A stretch of DNA of 44,053 bases. It comes from a virus (taxonomy: Duplodnaviria > Heunggongvirae > Uroviricota > Caudoviricetes). Below, in pieces: positions 5,699-17,888 of the stretch (positions are counted from its first letter, which is position 1; every line of letters starts with the position of its first letter). The stretch spans positions 1-44,053 of the IMG/VR virus record IMGVR_UViG_2597489870_000002, one strand, 5' to 3'. A program made the position numbers and the translations under genes. Below the pieces are notes generated by a model. It had not been told where the DNA came from. It searched no databases and saw only the letters and a list, made by a program, of their open reading frames with translations.

Positions 5699-5776
5699 TT
5701 ACCGTTGAGGTAATGATTATGCGTATTTGGTTTGGTGTCAATAGATATGAGTTAAAAAAATTACCCTTAAGGTAAT
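5699..5776 (-). promoter_or_regulatory. Leftward early promoter with two operator palindromes (OL-like)
   Basis: Sites TTACCGTTGAGGTAAT (5699-5714) and TTACCCTTAAGGTAAT (5761-5776) flank a minus-strand TTGACA -35 (rc of 5736-5741) and TAATCA -10. Confidence 0.6.
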
Positions 5777-5832: not shown

Positions 5833-6417
5833 TTATTGTTTGTTTTTTTCGTTCTGGTTGATGACAAATTCAATGTAACTTTCGATCTTTGCTTTCTCGG
5901 TTTCGGGTAACAATGCGTAGCGCGAGCGGTCATAGTTGATGGTCGCAGGGTCGTGCGGGTGAATCAGTAATTCATAGCCGTGACGCCCGAATGCGGATGC
6001 AACATTCTCCAGGGTGGAAATGGAAACGCTGACCTCATTGTTTAACAGGCGGCTGATTGTCACCTGGGCGACGCCGGATGCGCGGTGAAGTTTTCCCTGT
6101 GTTGAAAGGTCGCGGCTTTCGCTCATCCAGCGTTCCAGGTTGTGAGCCGCCAGCTGACCTATATCGCTCGGGCCGACAGGCTGAAAACCTTCCTGAGAAA
6201 GCGAGCGATCGATATCAAGCCAGTTACGGGGTTTATTGGCGGCAGCTTCAATTTTTCGCGCAACCTGGTCGCCGATAACCTTCTTGCCAAGAGCCCAGCG
6301 GTTTACCAGATTTGCCTGAGTTCCAAGTTTTTCTGCCATCCGCGTCTGAACACCATTGAATTCACGGTCGATCAAGTCGTTGAGATTTTGCCTGCGGACG
6401 TCCTGGATACTTTTCAT
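5833..6417 (-). CDS. CI-like prophage repressor (HTH-XRE), no peptidase domain evident
   Basis: 194 aa; N-terminal HTH (GVQTRMAEKLGTQANLVNRWALGKK) and a second HTH-like segment (ASGVAQVTISRLLNNE); divergent from a cro-like gene across an operator region; no S24 Ser/Lys peptidase motifs seen. Confidence 0.75.
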   Translation of the reverse strand: MKSIQDVRRQNLNDLIDREFNGVQTRMAEKLGTQANLVNRWALGKKVIGDQVARKIEAAANKPRNWLDIDRSLSQEGFQPVGPSDIGQLAAHNLERWMSESRDLSTQGKLHRASGVAQVTISRLLNNEVSVSISTLENVASAFGRHGYELLIHPHDPATINYDRSRYALLPETEKAKIESYIEFVINQNEKNKQ

Positions 6418-12609: not shown

Positions 12610-13206
12610 ATGCCCGCAGAACCAAAGGCACCAAAACGCAAATCAACGCAGTACAAGCCACTGACAGCGATGCAGGAGGCTTACGCGCAGGAATATACCA
12701 AATGCCCAGAGAATCAGACGCAGGCAGCGATTAACGCAGGATTCTCACCTAATACGGCAGCGGTCAAAGCCAGCGTCATGATGCGTGATGAGCGCATTCA
12801 GAAACGAATAGCTGAACTGATGGAAGAGCGCAACAAGCGACTGCGCGTCAGTGCTGATTACGTGCTACTCCGTCTGGTGGAAATTGACCAGATGGATGTG
12901 ATGGATATCCTGAACGACGATATGAGCATCAAGCCGGTTTCAGAATGGCCCAAGGTCTGGCGGCAGTACCTGACAGGGTTCGAGCTTGCCGACATGTTCG
13001 AAGGTCGTGGCGACGAGAAAGAATTGGTTGGCATCCTCAAAAAAATAAAATGGCCGGACAAGGTGAAGAACCTTGAGCTTATCGGTAAGCACGTCGACGT
13101 CAACGCGTTCAAAGAGCGCCTTGAGGTATCCGGTACCGTCACCATTGCCGACCGCATGGCGAAGGCCCGCCGTCGTGTGAAAGAGCAGGCTGGTGGTGAA
13201 GAATGA
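12610..13206 (+). CDS. Terminase small subunit
   Basis: Start moved to ATG 12610 (MPAEPKAPKRK) because the longer ORF would span a terminator and an operator site; GGTGG ribosome-binding site; overlaps large subunit start. Confidence 0.7.
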   Translation: MPAEPKAPKRKSTQYKPLTAMQEAYAQEYTKCPENQTQAAINAGFSPNTAAVKASVMMRDERIQKRIAELMEERNKRLRVSADYVLLRLVEIDQMDVMDILNDDMSIKPVSEWPKVWRQYLTGFELADMFEGRGDEKELVGILKKIKWPDKVKNLELIGKHVDVNAFKERLEVSGTVTIADRMAKARRRVKEQAGGEE

Positions 13207-14684
13207 CAGCTGCAGCCATGTCGCCGGAAGAGCAACTCGTCGAGGATATCGCAGGGTTCACGTATGACCCGCTGGGCTATGCGTTGTATGCGTTCCCGTG
13301 GGGAGAAGAGGGCACTGAGCTGGCACATGCCACCGGTCCCCGAAAATGGCAGGCCGACGCATTCCGCGAGATACGCGATCACCTCCAGAATCCGGCAACA
13401 CGTCACCAGCCGATAATGCTGGCTCGCGCATCCGGTCATGGCATCGGTAAATCTGCGTTCATCTCGATGCTGATTAACTGGGGCATGTCGACCTGTGAAG
13501 ACTGCAAGGTAGTGGTGACAGCCAACACCGACAACCAGTTACGCACCAAAACATGGCCGGAAATCATCAAATGGTCGAACCTGGCTATCACAAAAGAATG
13601 GTTTACCTGCACCGCCACGGCGATGTACAGCAACGATCCGGGTCACGACAAACGCTGGCGCGCTGACGCAATCCCATGGTCTGAGCATAACACCGAGGCA
13701 TTTGCCGGACTGCACAACGAGCGAAAGCGCATCATCGTCGTATTCGACGAAGCGTCCAACATTGCCGATCTGGTGTGGGAAGTAGCAGAGGGTGCTCTGA
13801 CGGACGAGGACACCGAGATTATCTGGGTGGCGTTCGGAAACCCGACGCGTAACACCGGGCGTTTCCGCGAATGCTTCCGCAAGTACAAGCACCGCTGGAA
13901 GTGCGCGCAGATTGACAGCCGCACCGTGGAAGGAACCAACAAGGAGCAACTGCAAAAATGGGTGGACGACTACGGCGAGGATAGCGACTTCGTGAAAGTC
14001 CGTGTACGCGGGATCTTCCCTGATGCGTCTGAAAACCAGTTCATCCCATCCGGACTGACGCAACCAGCTGTTGGCAGGGTTATTACTCCGGCACAGGTCC
14101 AGCATGCTGCTGTAGTTCTTGGAGTCGACCCGTCTCACCAGGGTAAAGACCCCGCAGTTATCTACCTGAGGCAGGGGCTGCACTGCAAAAAACTCGGGGA
14201 GTGGCAGCGTACCACTGACGATGTGCTGTTTGCGAAAGTGATTGCCGACTTCGAGGATCAGTACCAGGCTGACGCTGTGTTTATCGATTACGGCTATGGC
14301 ACAGGTCTTAAATCTGTTGGCGATAACTGGGGGCGCAACTGGACGCTGATAATGTTCGGCAGCGGTACGGCAGATCCCGAGATGGGCAACAAACGCGGCG
14401 AGATGTATAAATCCGCCCGTGACGCGCTGAAGCTTGGTGCGCAACTGGATAGCCAGGAACTTGCCGACGAACTGAGCGCACCTGAATACAAAGTCAGGCT
14501 GAAGGACAGCAGGAAGATTTTACAGGACAAGGACGAGGTGAAAGAATTGCTTGGCCGGTCACCGAACAATGCCGACGCCTATGTGCTGACTTATGCCGCT
14601 CCTGTTACCAAAAAACAGTTCAACTATGGGCAGCAGCAAAGCCAGCAGGGTAAGGCTCTCACAGAGTACGATCCCTATGCTTGA
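13203..14684 (+). CDS. Terminase large subunit
   Basis: 493 aa; Walker A-like GHGIGKS; follows the small subunit with a 4-nt overlap. Confidence 0.85.
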   Translation: MTAAAMSPEEQLVEDIAGFTYDPLGYALYAFPWGEEGTELAHATGPRKWQADAFREIRDHLQNPATRHQPIMLARASGHGIGKSAFISMLINWGMSTCEDCKVVVTANTDNQLRTKTWPEIIKWSNLAITKEWFTCTATAMYSNDPGHDKRWRADAIPWSEHNTEAFAGLHNERKRIIVVFDEASNIADLVWEVAEGALTDEDTEIIWVAFGNPTRNTGRFRECFRKYKHRWKCAQIDSRTVEGTNKEQLQKWVDDYGEDSDFVKVRVRGIFPDASENQFIPSGLTQPAVGRVITPAQVQHAAVVLGVDPSHQGKDPAVIYLRQGLHCKKLGEWQRTTDDVLFAKVIADFEDQYQADAVFIDYGYGTGLKSVGDNWGRNWTLIMFGSGTADPEMGNKRGEMYKSARDALKLGAQLDSQELADELSAPEYKVRLKDSRKILQDKDEVKELLGRSPNNADAYVLTYAAPVTKKQFNYGQQQSQQGKALTEYDPYA

Positions 14685-14707
14685 AAAAGCCCGCGAATCG
14701 GCGGGCT
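14684..14707 (-). terminator. Intrinsic terminator for minus-strand moron gene
   Basis: AGCCCGC-GAATCG-GCGGGCT hairpin; U-tract on minus strand overlaps the terminase stop codon. Confidence 0.55.
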
Positions 14708-14727
14708 AGTTGTGACATGTCACGGCT

Positions 14728-15333
14728 TTAGTCCTGTAAATATTCTTCGGTGCTCACAGCCAGCCGGCCTTCTAACAGTTCAGCGTGAGTGCTATCAATG
14801 ATAACCGAATGATGCGGGTGAACATTTTGAGCCAGCCATTTAATTACTGGTCTTGTCACTTCTTCGAATGAGTCAGCTAAGGCTTTGTTTGTGTCTGTGA
14901 TATTGCAATCACCAAGATTAATGGCATCAAATCCAGCGTTGATGGCTTCCGCAATATTGGTGGCATTGGTTTTATCGAATTGCCCATTCTGAATAAGCGC
15001 CGCATGCAGACATTGTAACTTCATGTTGTATAAGTGTTCTCGCATGTAATCATCATCACTTTTTTCTTTAGCGTAAACAGCGCGAGAAATATCAAATACA
15101 TTACCTTTTTCCATTTCCGTCCGCTGGGCTGCAATCCAGTCATGACTTGTAACGCTAGTCCCATGGTCTTCACTAAGCGGTAACCCGGCCAGTCGTTCAC
15201 CAGGAATTACCTCGTAATGCATTTCGTTACCGGCAAAAACACCATAAAAAATAGAGTCATCAGCTTGAACGATGCGGGAATATTTTAAAGGCCATTCATT
15301 TAGATATTTAGCCAACATATCAACTGTTTTCAT
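14728..15333 (-). CDS. Hypothetical protein (opposite-strand moron, unknown function)
   Basis: 201 aa, no transmembrane segment or recognisable motif; AAGGTGAG ribosome-binding site; embedded antisense in the late region. Confidence 0.6.
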   Translation of the reverse strand: MKTVDMLAKYLNEWPLKYSRIVQADDSIFYGVFAGNEMHYEVIPGERLAGLPLSEDHGTSVTSHDWIAAQRTEMEKGNVFDISRAVYAKEKSDDDYMREHLYNMKLQCLHAALIQNGQFDKTNATNIAEAINAGFDAINLGDCNITDTNKALADSFEEVTRPVIKWLAQNVHPHHSVIIDSTHAELLEGRLAVSTEEYLQD

Positions 15334-15344
15334 AATCTCACCTT

Positions 15345-15368
15345 AAAAAAATGCCCACCGGAGTGGGC
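15345..15368 (-). terminator. Intrinsic terminator whose U-tract abuts the moron ribosome-binding site
   Basis: GCCCAC-TCCG-GTGGGC hairpin plus 7 U on minus strand, immediately followed by AAGGUGAGAUU-AUG. Confidence 0.6.
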
Positions 15369-15541
15369 GAACTGGAAGCAAGGATGCCTTCCATGGCAGT
15401 TACGGGTTTACAGCGCAACGTCATCGCAATGGCGTTCTGCTGTAAAAGTGACGGTGGTCAGCATCAAGGGAAACTGCCACCGCCAATAGCTACACAGCAT
15501 CGTTCTTATGGGCGCTTCATCACGGTCCTAAGGCGTGATTC

Positions 15542-15618
15542 TGGTGCGGCATGCAGGATTCGAACCTGCGGCCAACCGCTTAGAAGGCGGTTGCTCTATC
15601 CAACTGAGCTAATGCCAC
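15542..15618 (-). tRNA. tRNA-Arg (anticodon UCU)
   Basis: 77-nt cloverleaf ending in CCA; anticodon loop CUUCUAA; T-loop GGTTCGAATCC; 7-bp acceptor stem with one G-U pair. Confidence 0.85.
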
Positions 15619-15882
15619 AACGCTGAGAGCACTCCCATCTTTGCTAATGGGCTTCAAGAGCGGCAGGCCTACCACTTGGAATGCTCTCATCGTTGCATCC
15701 TCGTCTATTCCGAGGTGTCACACCGTATCGCCACGATGGTGAGTCGTCATGTCCGTGCTTACCTGACACTGGCTTGCACATTCCGGCTACCCGGCTGGGG
15801 AAGTAGCATCAAGTGAACCCATCCGGACCGCTGCGGCACATGTGCCATATACCGTACATCCACTGCGTCACATCAACATCAA

Positions 15883-15898
15883 TTACCTAAAAGGTAAT
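15883..15898. promoter_or_regulatory. Operator palindrome upstream of virion operon
   Basis: TTACCTAAAAGGTAAT; ATGTGGTT at 15942-15949. Confidence 0.5.
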
Positions 15899-15987
15899 AT
15901 CTGATGTTATAGGTGTCAATAGCCTACGCTAAATAAATCATATGTGGTTAAATTGGTAATAATTTAATTGCGTACGGAGCTATTGCT

Positions 15988-16194
15988 ATGTGTATCGGCA
16001 GCAAGCCATCAGTGCCAGCAGCACCAGAAGTACAGGCCGCGCCACAGGAGCAGGATGCAGCAGTTGTCAGTTCTCGTGACGACGAAGAGCGCCGCCGCCG
16101 TGCAGCCGCTGGCCGCAGTTCCACTCTGCTGACTGGTGCACAGGGCGACACCTCAACCGCAAACACCAGCGGTAAAACGCTGCTCGGTCAGTAA
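15988..16194 (+). CDS. Hypothetical small protein
   Basis: 68 aa, Ala/Arg-rich; GGAG ribosome-binding site; precedes portal. Confidence 0.4.
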   Translation: MCIGSKPSVPAAPEVQAAPQEQDAAVVSSRDDEERRRRAAAGRSSTLLTGAQGDTSTANTSGKTLLGQ

Positions 16195-16208
16195 CGGAGT
16201 AGGCAGAG

Positions 16209-17888
16209 ATGGCGGAAACCGAAAAAGAGCGTCTGCTGAAGCAGCTCGCACAGCTGAAGAGTGAGCGCACATCGTTCGAGTCACACTGGCGTGACCTGAG
16301 CGATTTTATCAATCCGCGCGGTTCCCGCTTTCTGACGTCTGATGTAAACCGTGATGATCGTCGTAACACTAAGATTATTGATCCTACCGGTTCAATGGCT
16401 CAGCGCATTCTGTCCAGCGGCATGATGTCCGGCATCACCAGTCCGGCCCGCCCATGGTTCAAACTGGCAACGCCTGACCCTGACATGATGGATTATGGTC
16501 CGGTTAAGGTGTGGCTTGAAGTCGTGCAGCGCCGTATGAACGAAGTGTTCAACAAGTCGAACCTGTATCAGTCATTGCCTGTCATGTACGCCAGCCTGGG
16601 TACTTTCGGTACCGCTGCAATGGCTGTGCTCGAAGATGACCAGGACGTGATTCGCACAATGCCTTTCCCGATTGGCTGCTACTACCTGGCTAACAGCCCG
16701 CGCGGCAGCGTCGACACATCCTTCCGTCAGTTCTCCATGACTGTTCGTCAACTGGTGCAGGAATTTGGGCTGGATAACGTCAGCTCATCGGTGCAGGGGA
16801 TGTGGCAAAACGGCACGTATGAAACGTGGATCGAAGTTAACCACTGCATCACGCCAAACGTTAACCGCGACACCGGGAAGATGGACAGCAAGAACAAGCC
16901 ATTCCGCTCTGTCTACTTCGAGACTGGCGGCGACGCTGACAAGCTGCTGCGTGAATCCGGCTTTGATGAATTCCCGATCCTTGCTCCGCGCTGGGAAGTG
17001 AACGGCGAAGACGTTTACGCCTCATCCTGCCCTGGCATGCTGGCACTCGGTCAGGTTAAAGCCCTTCAGGTTGAGCAGAAACGTAAAGCGCAACTGATCG
17101 ATAAGGCTACCAACCCGCCAATGGTTGCACCTACCTCGCTAAAAACACAGCGTGTTTCCCTGCTGCCTGGTGATGTGACGTACCTCGACGTGTTGAGCGG
17201 TCAGGACGGTTTCAAACCTGCATATCTGGTAAACCCGAATACTGCAGATCTTCTGGCTGACATTCAGGATACCCGCCAGACCATCAACAGCGCCTACTTC
17301 GTCGACCTCTTCATGATGCTGCAAAACATCAACACCCGCTCGATGCCTGTTGAAGCGGTGATCGAAATGAAAGAAGAAAAACTTCTGATGTTGGGGCCGG
17401 TTCTGGAGCGTCTGAACGACGAATGTCTTAATCCTCTCATTGACCGCGCTTTCTCGATGATGGTGCGTAAAAACATGCTGCCGCCACCGCCTGACGCGAT
17501 GGAAGGCATGCCCCTGAAGGTCGAATACATTTCCGTCATGGCTCAGGCGCAGAAGTCTATCGGCCTGTCCAGTCTGGCGTCCACGGTTAACTTCATTGGT
17601 CAACTTGCGCAAGCGAAACCAGAAGCTCTCGACAAACTCAACGTTGATCAGGCGATCGATGCATTCGCTGATATGTCCGGAGTGTCTCCAACCGTTATTG
17701 TTCCGCAGGAACAGGTTGAGCAGGCCCGCCAGCAACGGGCACAGCAGCAACAGCAGCAACAAATGATGGCGATGGGGATGGCGGCGGCACAGGGTGCCAA
17801 GACGCTAAGCGAAGCTAAAACTTCGGATCCGAGTGTTTTGTCAGCTATGGCGAATGCAGTTAGTGGTCAGGGTGGGCAATCACAATGA
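16209..17888 (+). CDS. Portal protein (podovirus-type)
   Basis: 559 aa; Gln/Ala/Met-rich C-terminal tail resembling T7-type portal C-termini; position after terminase. Confidence 0.75.
   Translation: MAETEKERLLKQLAQLKSERTSFESHWRDLSDFINPRGSRFLTSDVNRDDRRNTKIIDPTGSMAQRILSSGMMSGITSPARPWFKLATPDPDMMDYGPVKVWLEVVQRRMNEVFNKSNLYQSLPVMYASLGTFGTAAMAVLEDDQDVIRTMPFPIGCYYLANSPRGSVDTSFRQFSMTVRQLVQEFGLDNVSSSVQGMWQNGTYETWIEVNHCITPNVNRDTGKMDSKNKPFRSVYFETGGDADKLLRESGFDEFPILAPRWEVNGEDVYASSCPGMLALGQVKALQVEQKRKAQLIDKATNPPMVAPTSLKTQRVSLLPGDVTYLDVLSGQDGFKPAYLVNPNTADLLADIQDTRQTINSAYFVDLFMMLQNINTRSMPVEAVIEMKEEKLLMLGPVLERLNDECLNPLIDRAFSMMVRKNMLPPPPDAMEGMPLKVEYISVMAQAQKSIGLSSLASTVNFIGQLAQAKPEALDKLNVDQAIDAFADMSGVSPTVIVPQEQVEQARQQRAQQQQQQQMMAMGMAAAQGAKTLSEAKTSDPSVLSAMANAVSGQGGQSQ

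Follow-up and report, generated by a model that had tools for sequence, protein, structure and literature searches.

Between its genes for the large terminase subunit (terL) and the portal protein, the viral DNA stretch IMGVR_UViG_2597489870_000002 (positions 1 to 44,053 of the IMG/VR record; 44,053 nucleotides (nt), here called the window) carries a cassette on the opposite, minus strand that ends in an open reading frame (ORF) of 201 amino acids (aa). This ORF is the present occupant of a fixed, exchangeable accessory slot: across 83 related loci, at least 11 ORF families without BLAST similarity to each other sit behind the same junction, in which the U-tract of a predicted intrinsic terminator (T2) runs directly into a Shine-Dalgarno sequence. 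Upstream of this junction lies a conserved structured RNA of ~517 nt that encloses a tRNA gene, and this leader RNA is a more interesting object than the ORF itself. The ORF, as cargo of the slot, probably forms one minus-strand unit with the leader and would be transcribed by read-through from a candidate leader promoter overlapped by a phage repressor operator.

A conserved junction in front of exchangeable cargo

For the comparison, 80 IMG/VR loci obtained via a conserved 68-aa neighbour protein were combined with four phage records and the window, and 83 slots were counted. A hairpin with a T-run is found in 79 of them, consisting of a GC stem of 6 bp, a loop that is mostly UUCG, an A, and U6-8, and in 67 of these 79 loci the T-run is followed directly by AAGGTG, with an ATG 2-9 nt later. 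The T2 stem occurs as two alleles, GCCCAC/GTGGGC (31 loci) and GCCCGG/CCGGGC (46 loci), corresponding to two compensatory pair changes. In the window, T2 has a predicted energy of -11.6 kcal/mol and is called terminator-like by a consensus scan, which returned one such site in 2 kb, a number not above the shuffle expectation of 2.0. As a lone terminator-like site does not exceed this expectation, the significance of the junction must rest on the related loci, and the conservation found there rules out a chance arrangement. The RNA gene ends with T2, which also delimits the cargo slot on its 5' side. In eight loci, the T2 U-tract precedes GCCTGGTGAC...TACC-N5-GGTA-TAnnnT, a promoter with an operator, instead of the Shine-Dalgarno sequence, and the cargo is a different one of ~262 aa with a membrane segment and a coiled coil; because these loci place promoter and operator directly after the hairpin, T2 probably serves as a real unit end.

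Since at least 11 unrelated cargos sit behind an identical junction, the fusion of terminator and ribosome-binding site is a property of the phage backbone. In addition, cargo and RNA insert assort independently, as one locus (L009) combines a cargo identical to the 201-aa protein with a leader whose insert is not a tRNA. The slot varies in length, with 477 to 1986 nt between the terL stop and the small conserved ORF on the other side. A hairpin of the type closing the cargo gene in the window (AGCCCG/CGGGCT with a T-run; terminator T3) lies at most 95 nt from the terL stop in 28 of the 83 slots under a strict perfect-stem test.

These comparisons bear on a first-pass annotation made from the letters of the window. 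Its opposite-strand accessory slot between terL and portal is borne out by position, and its coordinates for tRNA-Arg, the 173-nt gap behind it, the first hairpin, the ORF, and the second terminator are all correct on the minus strand. The succession of hairpin, U7, Shine-Dalgarno sequence, and AUG is likewise as described, except that an A (15352) between stem and U7 had been left out. Two points need revision: the cassette does not start at 15880 but further upstream, at the promoter and operator (15919-15883), and the supposed 173-nt spacer (15541-15369) belongs to the conserved structured RNA.

The window is a Uetakevirus (epsilon15/phiV10/SPN1S-like) prophage of the enterotoxigenic Escherichia coli (ETEC) strain H10407, and a 1651-nt region around the cassette is 100% identical to the chromosome of that strain. 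The closest phages are the Salmonella phages SPN1S, SPN9TCW, and SPC32H, followed by phiV10, TL-2011b, and epsilon15, all of the genus Uetakevirus. In H10407, the ORF is WP_000859350, annotated as "hypothetical protein", its neighbours being a terL-like gene, and tRNA-Arg, a 68-aa ORF, and the portal gene. At least 80% of the locus is covered in only 3 of 5426 complete E. coli genomes. A scan of genome contigs with the 68-aa neighbour protein gave no match, and a DNA-motif scan returned seven species.

Parts of the locus have been annotated before. In epsilon15 (GenBank record AY150271), the same locus carries annotated repressor, IHF, and RNase III sites, a rho-independent terminator ahead of the slot ORF, and the opposite-strand ORF, while in phiV10 (DQ126339) the ORF and its 3' terminator, corresponding to T3, are annotated. 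Both phages differ from the window in their cargo, which is Phage_gp49_66 / Sf6 gp66-like, and the epsilon15 leader is deleted to 160 nt. Thus, the terminator and the ORF were already annotated, whereas the structured RNA, the variability of the slot, and the lack of a promoter were not recognised in these records.

The true start of the cargo gene is the ATG after AAGGTGA. ORF calls in the slot often begin too far upstream, translating the T2 hairpin and the Shine-Dalgarno sequence as "...FAHFGGHFFKVKIM...", as seen in SPN9TCW_003 (L002 2190-2696), in loci L004, L013, L015, and L029-L031, in protein P0091, and in many metagenomic calls. Comparing slots therefore corrects gene starts in several deposited phage genomes.

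At the other end of the unit, all aligned loci keep a candidate promoter, whose -10 is overlapped by a palindrome; the same palindrome is part of a promoter-like site on the plus strand, which diverges from the unit and faces the portal operon. The window contains 16 copies of this palindrome (TTACC-N5-GGTAA), where 0.78 would be expected, at positions 5699, 5761, 6473, 6521, 6858, 8804, 8866, 10216, 12575, 12593, 15883, 33461, 34501, 34594, 35713, and 40850. Four copies flank an HTH_3 repressor-like gene (5833-6417), two on each side, and others precede several operons; the homologous site of epsilon15 is annotated as 'repressor / lysogeny' in AY150271. The palindrome at 15897-15883 is thus an operator of the phage repressor. 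Because this annotated repressor operator overlaps the candidate -10, the unit is probably early and repressor-controlled; judged by sequence, it most probably starts at this promoter and would not be expressed in the lysogen. Operator palindromes precede many operons, including within the virion-gene region, and this spread suggests direct repression at many promoters and not a single early/late cascade.

A structured leader RNA around the tRNA

The leader was aligned over 55 distinct copies (alignment A4), where long invariant blocks are split by variable hairpins on both sides of the tRNA. The RNAalifold consensus of these copies holds 83 pairs, 25 of them with compensatory changes. In a lightly curated structure, scored on the same alignment from which it was derived, 96.6% of cells are paired, compared to 33-45% once the 3' partners are shifted by 1-3 columns; the shifted controls also have fewer double-change pairs (4-9, against 25) and lower covariation scores (at most 0.061, against 0.182), and none of 500 shuffles reaches the observed values. 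The leader is thus a real structured RNA with long-range helices enclosing the tRNA. Its parts are listed in Table 1. One of them is an internal terminator-like hairpin, T1, with the consensus GGCGGUGG/CCACCGCC followed by U4-5, which forms a covarying helix in A4 (columns 695-702/726-739; 702:726 is GC in 33 copies and AU in 15). As sequence 3' of T1 pairs with the 5' core, T1 must be read through for the RNA to fold.

A tRNA occupies the insert position in 30 of the 83 slots, while elsewhere unrelated inserts of 90-230 nt keep the closing stem. These variants span A4 columns 350-626, with examples in loci L009, L012, L017, L047, L049, and L067. Some non-tRNA inserts carry a canonical T-arm sequence (GGTTCGAATCC) yet are not called as tRNAs, and one insert type gives weak full-length matches to the Rfam model Methylophilales-1 (28-30 bits, with a gathering score of 79.9). 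In a lambdoid copy, an insert of 127 nt (L151 8173-8299) scores 42 bits on the Rfam tRNA model. The alternative inserts could be tRNA-like decoys.

Six Uetakevirus loci (L005, L010, L013, L020, L021, and L215, which is epsilon15) are without leader positions ~185-516. The deletion of ~330 nt runs between two copies of CCCTTGATGCT, one in the loop of a 5' hairpin and the other in the T1 loop.

Known RNA families do not account for the leader. In a search of the window region and 11 further loci with the Rfam 15 covariance models (E up to 1-5), the tRNA was the only real match, and group I and II introns, tmRNA, RNase P, ROOL, GOLLD, and C4 were excluded on the lack of an Rfam match. A coding function was rejected as well, as the distance between ATGTGCAAG and GGTGTGAC is spread evenly over the three frames (19/25/29) and gaps are not multiples of three. 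The most conserved block, GGTGTGACACCTCGGAAGAGACGAGG (15719-15693, minus strand), translates to the arginine-rich GVTPRKRRG and lies in ORFs of 45-226 aa in many loci; it was considered as an N-like motif and dropped, because the frame is not conserved and the likeness arises by chance from the purine-rich hairpin. In the 5' hairpin (15846-15838), the invariant loop GGCAC is complementary to an invariant GUGC in GGAAUGUGCAAG (15779-15771), ~65 nt downstream, and with a wider alignment RNAalifold prefers GGCACAU/AUGUGC. A pseudoknot or alternative fold between the two is possible, a pairing that covariation cannot test because both partners are invariant.

Table 1 Features of the slot, the leader RNA, and their neighbours in the window.
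Feature	Position	Strand	Sequence, parts and basis
Large terminase gene (terL), left slot border	13203..14684	+	Named terminase large subunit in SPN9TCW, phiV10, and epsilon15
Terminator T3	14684..14707	-	AGCCCGC...GCGGGCU and U5; predicted energy -13.1 kcal/mol; U-run touches the terL stop at 14684
Cargo ORF, 201 aa (WP_000859350)	14728..15333	-	Module A, aa 1-93 (15333-15055); module B, aa 94-139 (15054-14917)
Cargo ORF, linker and module D	14916-14731	-	aa 140-201; alignment, PHROGs
Shine-Dalgarno sequence and start codon	15331..15344	-	AAGGUGA 15344-15338, GAUU spacer, AUG 15333-15331; sequence reading
Predicted intrinsic terminator T2	15345..15368	-	GCCCAC-UCCG-GUGGGC 15368-15353, A 15352, U7 15351-15345; 6-bp stem, 4-nt loop
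Conserved structured leader RNA, ~517 nt	15345..15861	-	Alignment of 55 distinct copies (A4)
Leader, 5' hairpin		-	CGGyrUAU-GGCAC-AUGyryCG; A4 consensus
Leader, conserved core		-	Contains GGUAGCCGGAAUGUGCAAGCC and CACCAUCGUGGCGAUACGGUGUGACACCUCG-GAAGAGA-CGAGG; A4 consensus
Leader, long stem		-	CAAC..AGAGCA / UGCUCU..GUUG; A4 consensus
Leader, insert position		-	Closed by GUGGy/rCCAC; A4 columns 352:624, CG 27 / UA 25
tRNA-Arg(UCU)	15618-15542	-	Occupies the insert position; ARAGORN; Rfam RF00005, 71 bits
Leader, hairpin after the insert		-	AUCACG/CGUGAU; A4 consensus
T1, internal terminator-like hairpin	15444..15484	-	GGCGGUGG...CCACCGUC, then ACUUUU; predicted energy -19.6 kcal/mol
Leader, 3' strands pairing back to the 5' core		-	AGCGGUC with GAC..GCUGU; GGCG and GGUGUGA with UUACAGC..CGCC; A4
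Operator palindrome	15897-15883	-	TTACCTTTTAGGTAA; overlaps the candidate -10
Candidate promoter	15883..15919	-	TTGACA 15919-15914, 17-nt spacer, TACCTT 15896-15891; kept in all aligned loci
Small conserved ORF, right slot border	15988-16194	+	phrog_831; PHROGs
Portal gene, right slot border	16209-17888	+	Pfam Head-tail_con 7e-186, PHROGs

The RNA is not confined to Uetakevirus. Using motif scans and nhmmer, its 5' core, which measures ~170 nt, was found with the same three-block spacing in ~30 viral contigs without the terminase and portal genes of Uetakevirus. These contigs show CII (CP76) and Cro-like genes on one strand, then a CI-type repressor gene (HTH and Peptidase_S24), a terminator, a promoter with operator-like repeats, and the RNA, which is followed by RdgC or ParB-HTH genes, and no N-like ORF is present. 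The RNA of these lambdoid copies therefore occupies the nutL/N position of the left operon, and in several of them no more than ~10 nt separate the predicted transcription start from the 5' hairpin. Named carriers include phage mEp390 (nhmmer 2e-36), phage cdtI, Stx2c-converting phages, and phages of Klebsiella and Stenotrophomonas, together with the P1-like P7, D6, and SJ46; the P7 copy (9e-33) belongs to the C1-controlled ban operon, with tRNA-Ile on one side and ban on the other. Throughout the loci examined (L006-L085; L095-L214), it is always found just downstream of a repressor-controlled early promoter. The hairpins CCUCG/CGAGG, CCCGG/CCGGG, and GCCGG/CCGGC covary across 78 representatives. 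The minimal lambdoid form consists of the core and the long stem, ~330 nt, the tRNA-like insert and the 3' domain being optional. Some prophages carry tandem RNA cores with an ORF between them, as in L100, where the copies lie ~800 nt apart, and H10407 (NC_017633) has a second copy of the RNA elsewhere in its chromosome, outside the window.

A count with a 126-nt core gave 2630 occurrences, of which 259 are on plasmids, spread over 2009 of 5426 complete E. coli genomes, and none of these places carries an annotated feature. In the literature searched on Uetakevirus morons, the phiV10 tRNA, the P1 ban operon, and put-like or prophage structured RNAs, no account of it was found, within incomplete coverage that makes a prior description possible. 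Even as a stable RNA, a processing platform, or a carrier of decoys, it would rank among the most frequent RNA genes of enterobacterial genomes that have gone unrecognised. Control of elongation by the RNA, should it exist, would account for early transcription in N-less lambdoid phages and in the P1 ban operon, and would offer a simple design rule for promoterless cargo.

Several known systems resemble the leader in part. The put RNA of HK022 is a cis-acting antiterminator of ~73 nt with two stem-loops (PMC9378689). Like put, the leader is a structured RNA close to the promoter of early operons under repressor control, in phages without N, with terminators downstream to pass; it differs in size, with a core of ~170 nt within 330-520 nt or more, and antitermination by it is only hypothetical. 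Homology to put was rejected, as an nhmmer search of the HK022 PL-nun region with the full RNA profile gave E values of 0.5 or more only and no common motif was seen by inspection. By eye, the leader also resembles nut sites in its nutL position in lambdoid relatives, a hairpin with a GAAGA-type purine loop, an UGCUCUUU motif, and the order of boxB then boxA, and it resembles rrn leaders in adjoining tRNA genes, as rrn spacers do, with a flank pairing reminiscent of rRNA processing stems. Unlike nut, it comes with no visible N-like protein, is far larger and more ornate, and has its boxA-like bases paired: for the boxA consensus GCUCUUUA, the leader has UGCUCUUU or UGCUCUCA, which pairs with AAGAGCA in the long stem (A4 209:340, GC 36 / AU 16). 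Finally, ROOL and GOLLD are, like the leader, large and ornate non-coding RNAs of prophages to which no function has been assigned and which typically lie near tRNAs, GOLLD reportedly even containing tRNAs. The leader differs from both in giving no covariance match at E up to 5, in its occurrence in Enterobacterales, and in its fixed promoter-proximal position.

Expression of the cargo and competing explanations

A consensus scan of the minus strand over positions 14400-16400 called no sigma-70-like promoter, and the gap between the U-tract and the AUG is 11 nt, in agreement with the first-pass statement that the junction leaves no room for a promoter. Since there is neither a detectable promoter nor room for one between T2 and the AUG, transcription of the cargo must come through T2; with a canonical terminator 11 nt upstream and no promoter of its own, the cargo should obtain its mRNA by read-through. 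The first-pass annotation had proposed either read-through or hairpin-modulated translation; the former is supported, while for the latter the predicted local fold leaves the T2 hairpin unpaired with the Shine-Dalgarno sequence and the AUG. Its suggestion of a toxic or dose-sensitive product found no sign in its favour, and an identical junction serves at least 11 unrelated cargo genes.

In the proposed mechanism, the unit would run from the promoter and operator (15919-15883) through the ~517-nt leader with its tRNA, T2 (15368-15345), and U7 with AAGGUGA into the cargo ORF, and would end at T3. Polymerases started at the leader promoter would pass the terminator(s) and yield the cargo mRNA, which would tie cargo expression to derepression, upon infection or induction, at a fraction of the RNA output. 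The U-tract directly before a strong Shine-Dalgarno sequence at optimal spacing would allow efficient ribosome loading, U-rich leaders being S1-dependent enhancers. Furthermore, the hairpin, U7, and Shine-Dalgarno sequence may act as one homology arm and the terL-proximal terminator as the second, between which unrelated cargos would be exchanged exactly at the start codon.

Several observations speak against parts of this scheme. T2 looks efficient, with a GC stem, a near-canonical tetraloop, and U7, so that read-through could be very low unless helped. With TACCTT, the candidate promoter has a weak -10, and it went uncalled in the consensus scan. The two alleles of the T2 hairpin may reflect only one or two evolutionary events. 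The deletion variants (6 of 83, including epsilon15) keep terminator, Shine-Dalgarno sequence, and cargo, and as these variants are without most of the leader, the RNA core is not required for a viable phage. Lastly, an anti-defence role for the cargo draws on association with a single Tad2-like slot-mate, most slot-mates being without known function.

How T2 is passed could be refined by a tentative proposal of fairly low probability, namely that the leader RNA is a cis-acting processive antitermination element. Polymerases modified by it would ignore T1 and T2; only transcripts from the operator-controlled promoter would then reach the cargo, and stray transcription would be halted. The 5' core is always promoter-proximal in repressor-controlled early operons, whether in the lambdoid copies, which follow a CI gene and a PL-like promoter ahead of RdgC- or ParB-like genes with no N-like ORF, or in the C1-controlled operon of P7, where it lies between tRNA-Ile and ban. 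T1, inside the RNA, must moreover be passed before pairing between the conserved 3' strands and the 5' core can occur. Covariation also supports the hairpin CCUCG-GAAGAGA-CGAGG, whose purine loop resembles that of boxB in lambda nutL, and UGCUCUUU resembles boxA. The RNA is also carried by mEp390, and the mEp collection was isolated as Nus-dependent phages (PMC11893012). Set against this, the RNA has no sequence similarity to HK022 putL and is several times larger than put, its boxA-like segment is base-paired in the consensus fold, and epsilon15-type deletions keep T2 and the cargo without the core. A universal terminator downstream of the RNA in lambdoid copies was also looked for and dropped: only 5 of 25 scanned non-Uetakevirus copies show a clear terminator inside or after the RNA under a strict test, and therefore lend antitermination no strong support. 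A broader proposal, which is speculative and rather doubtful, would make the ~170-nt core with its variable 3' modules a new and very common class of leader RNA that combines an N-free antiterminator (RNA-only or Nus-assisted) unrelated to put, a carrier of tRNAs or tRNA-like inserts, and a licensing gate of terminator and ribosome-binding site. If so, only leader-modified polymerases would express anti-defence cargo, the tRNA-like inserts could be decoys or replacements against host anticodon nucleases, and a dozen unrelated genes could therefore live in the slot without promoters. An integron-like cassette system was considered too and dropped, there being no integrase nearby and the borders being ordinary terminators.

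It is rather unlikely that the RNA/tRNA gene and the cargo are functionally separate, with T2 ending a stable-RNA gene, the hairpin, U7, and Shine-Dalgarno sequence being a recombination joint, and the cargo arising from passive leak or being barely expressed. In 67 loci, conserved DNA gives way to variable DNA exactly at the junction, the type of cargo is independent of the RNA insert in a leader that is itself mosaic, and in eight loci the next gene supplies its own promoter, all of which would fit such a separation. Purifying selection and a conserved, strong Shine-Dalgarno sequence at optimal spacing argue instead for translation, and at least 11 promoterless families imply that read-through is sufficient and selected for. 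Action of the hairpin on translation or mRNA stability, as a 5' stem-loop after processing or through access to the Shine-Dalgarno sequence, and thereby tuning a toxic product, is improbable. The hairpin and the Shine-Dalgarno sequence are indeed 8 nt apart, the epsilon15 annotators predicted that the leader is processed by RNase III, and the upstream tRNA entails RNase P/E processing, which a tRNA in a transcript guarantees. Yet the predicted local fold keeps the Shine-Dalgarno sequence and AUG out of the hairpin, the same hairpin stands ahead of unrelated cargos and so is not tuned to one product, and no sign of toxicity is seen in a soluble, acidic protein without membrane segment or nuclease motif. 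Least likely, and very improbable, is a hidden promoter in the 3' domain of the RNA (15440-15370) that drives the cargo from a start at or just before the hairpin. The invariant blocks TTGCGATGAC and GCTGTAAACC of this domain could be promoter elements, but no properly spaced -35/-10 pair was seen by eye or scan, the blocks pair over long range with the 5' core in helices that covary or are invariant, and a transcript from there must still pass T2.

Read-through from the leader promoter, the preferred account, sets the slot apart from the classical moron. Phage morons, a concept of Hendrix and Juhala, are the subject of the review 'The moron comes of age' (PMC3594210). The slot gene resembles them in lying between conserved virion genes, in varying among relatives by insertion, in having its own downstream terminator, and in not being needed for the virion. 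It differs in that a classical moron has its own promoter, whereas the slot cargo has none immediately upstream and is docked behind the terminator of another gene; because the upstream promoter carries a repressor operator, expression of the cargo in the lysogen is doubtful. A further parallel is thrU-tyrU-glyT-thrT-tufB of E. coli, where a promoterless protein gene is co-transcribed through upstream tRNAs. The slot cargo is also promoterless and behind a stable-RNA promoter; no terminator separates the tRNAs from tufB, whereas the slot cargo has a canonical terminator abutting its Shine-Dalgarno sequence.

The 201-aa protein and other occupants of the slot

The 201-aa ORF is a real gene, as its dN/dS (ratio of non-synonymous to synonymous substitution rates) of 0.13-0.37 against six slot homologues indicates purifying selection. 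Of 101 homologues, most measure 139-140 aa and end after residue 139, the form of 201-204 aa being rare; hundreds of contigs from E. coli, Salmonella, Citrobacter, and Klebsiella carry the shorter form. In PHROGs, residues 1-139 match phrog_4846 (5e-86) and residues 154-201 match the C-terminus of phrog_16206 (8e-18), both without an assigned function. Searches of Pfam gave no match, of NCBIfam nothing near cut-offs, and of PDB by sequence no relative, and in PADLOC no defence or anti-defence family was reached, the only match being a 17-bit Cas3 fragment. Profile and fold searches against virion-structural families (capsid, tail, scaffold) returned no match. The first-pass annotation had recognised no motif in the protein, and had named a lack of conservation in related prophages and membership of a virion-structural family as outcomes that would speak against its reading; no virion-structural relative was found, and the N-terminal 139 aa are kept in hundreds of prophages.

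Alignment resolves the family into four small recombining modules, A, B, C, and D, with the 201-aa ORF being A+B+D without C. Relatives show the architectures A-B, C-B, A-B-C-D, B-C-D, and x-C-D, several of which occur in the same slot. An AlphaFold model (AF2, deep alignment) has a predicted local distance difference test score (pLDDT) of 80 and three independent domains, an alpha/beta domain, a helical hairpin, and a helix with a beta-hairpin, and structural searches with this model of the ORF gave no informative relative. The protein is acidic, with an isoelectric point (pI) of 4.9, and no hydrophobic or membrane segment and no nuclease motif were found in it. It is thus an acidic, soluble, and rare three-module mosaic, and, judging from the context of the slot, its role is most likely that of an early host-takeover or anti-defence factor.

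The cargo met most often belongs to the Phage_gp49_66 (N4 gp49 / Sf6 gp66) family, with phiV10p03 and the epsilon15 cargo as examples. In other loci the slot holds a 143-aa Cys-rich protein (PAT1), a small membrane protein (SPN9TCW), an HNH_3 endonuclease, or one of several proteins without a family. One alternative cargo is a Pfam Tad2-like protein (PF11195, 1.4e-23), in line with the first-pass expectation of host-interaction or anti-defence genes at this position. As at least 11 families share one expression context, the slot offers a convenient place to look for candidate genes with early, anti-defence, or host-takeover functions.

A second type of cargo, of 201-305 aa, has an N-terminal membrane segment and a long coiled coil and falls into PHROGs of unassigned function (loci L026, L037, L055-L057, L066, L070, L072, L076, L077, and L085). 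It carries its own promoter, GTGACy-17-TAnnnT, with an operator palindrome inside, and could be a gene of the superinfection-exclusion or abortive-infection type.

Module D spreads well beyond the slot. A profile search of 1.84 billion representatives returned 1012 proteins, most sharing module D only, while a word-indexed search with module D alone gave eight unnamed proteins. The module spans ~50 aa with the consensus ..PxIKWLxxNxxPHxxxIxxxTxAELxxG....TxEFLKD, is found in more than 1000 clusters at 50% identity, and has no Pfam family. It occurs as stand-alone proteins of 53-82 aa or as the C-terminus behind many different N-termini, including the Phage_gp49_66 domain. Stand-alone D proteins lie at lambdoid accessory positions, such as the PL operon between N and erf, or between the lysis genes and the terminase. 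Combinatorial proteins of A, B, C, D, and Phage_gp49_66 parts are seen in P0008, P0094, P0097, P0099, and P0112-P0159, and one x-C-B protein lies between scaffold-like and capsid genes of an unrelated podovirus (L223 4001-4573).

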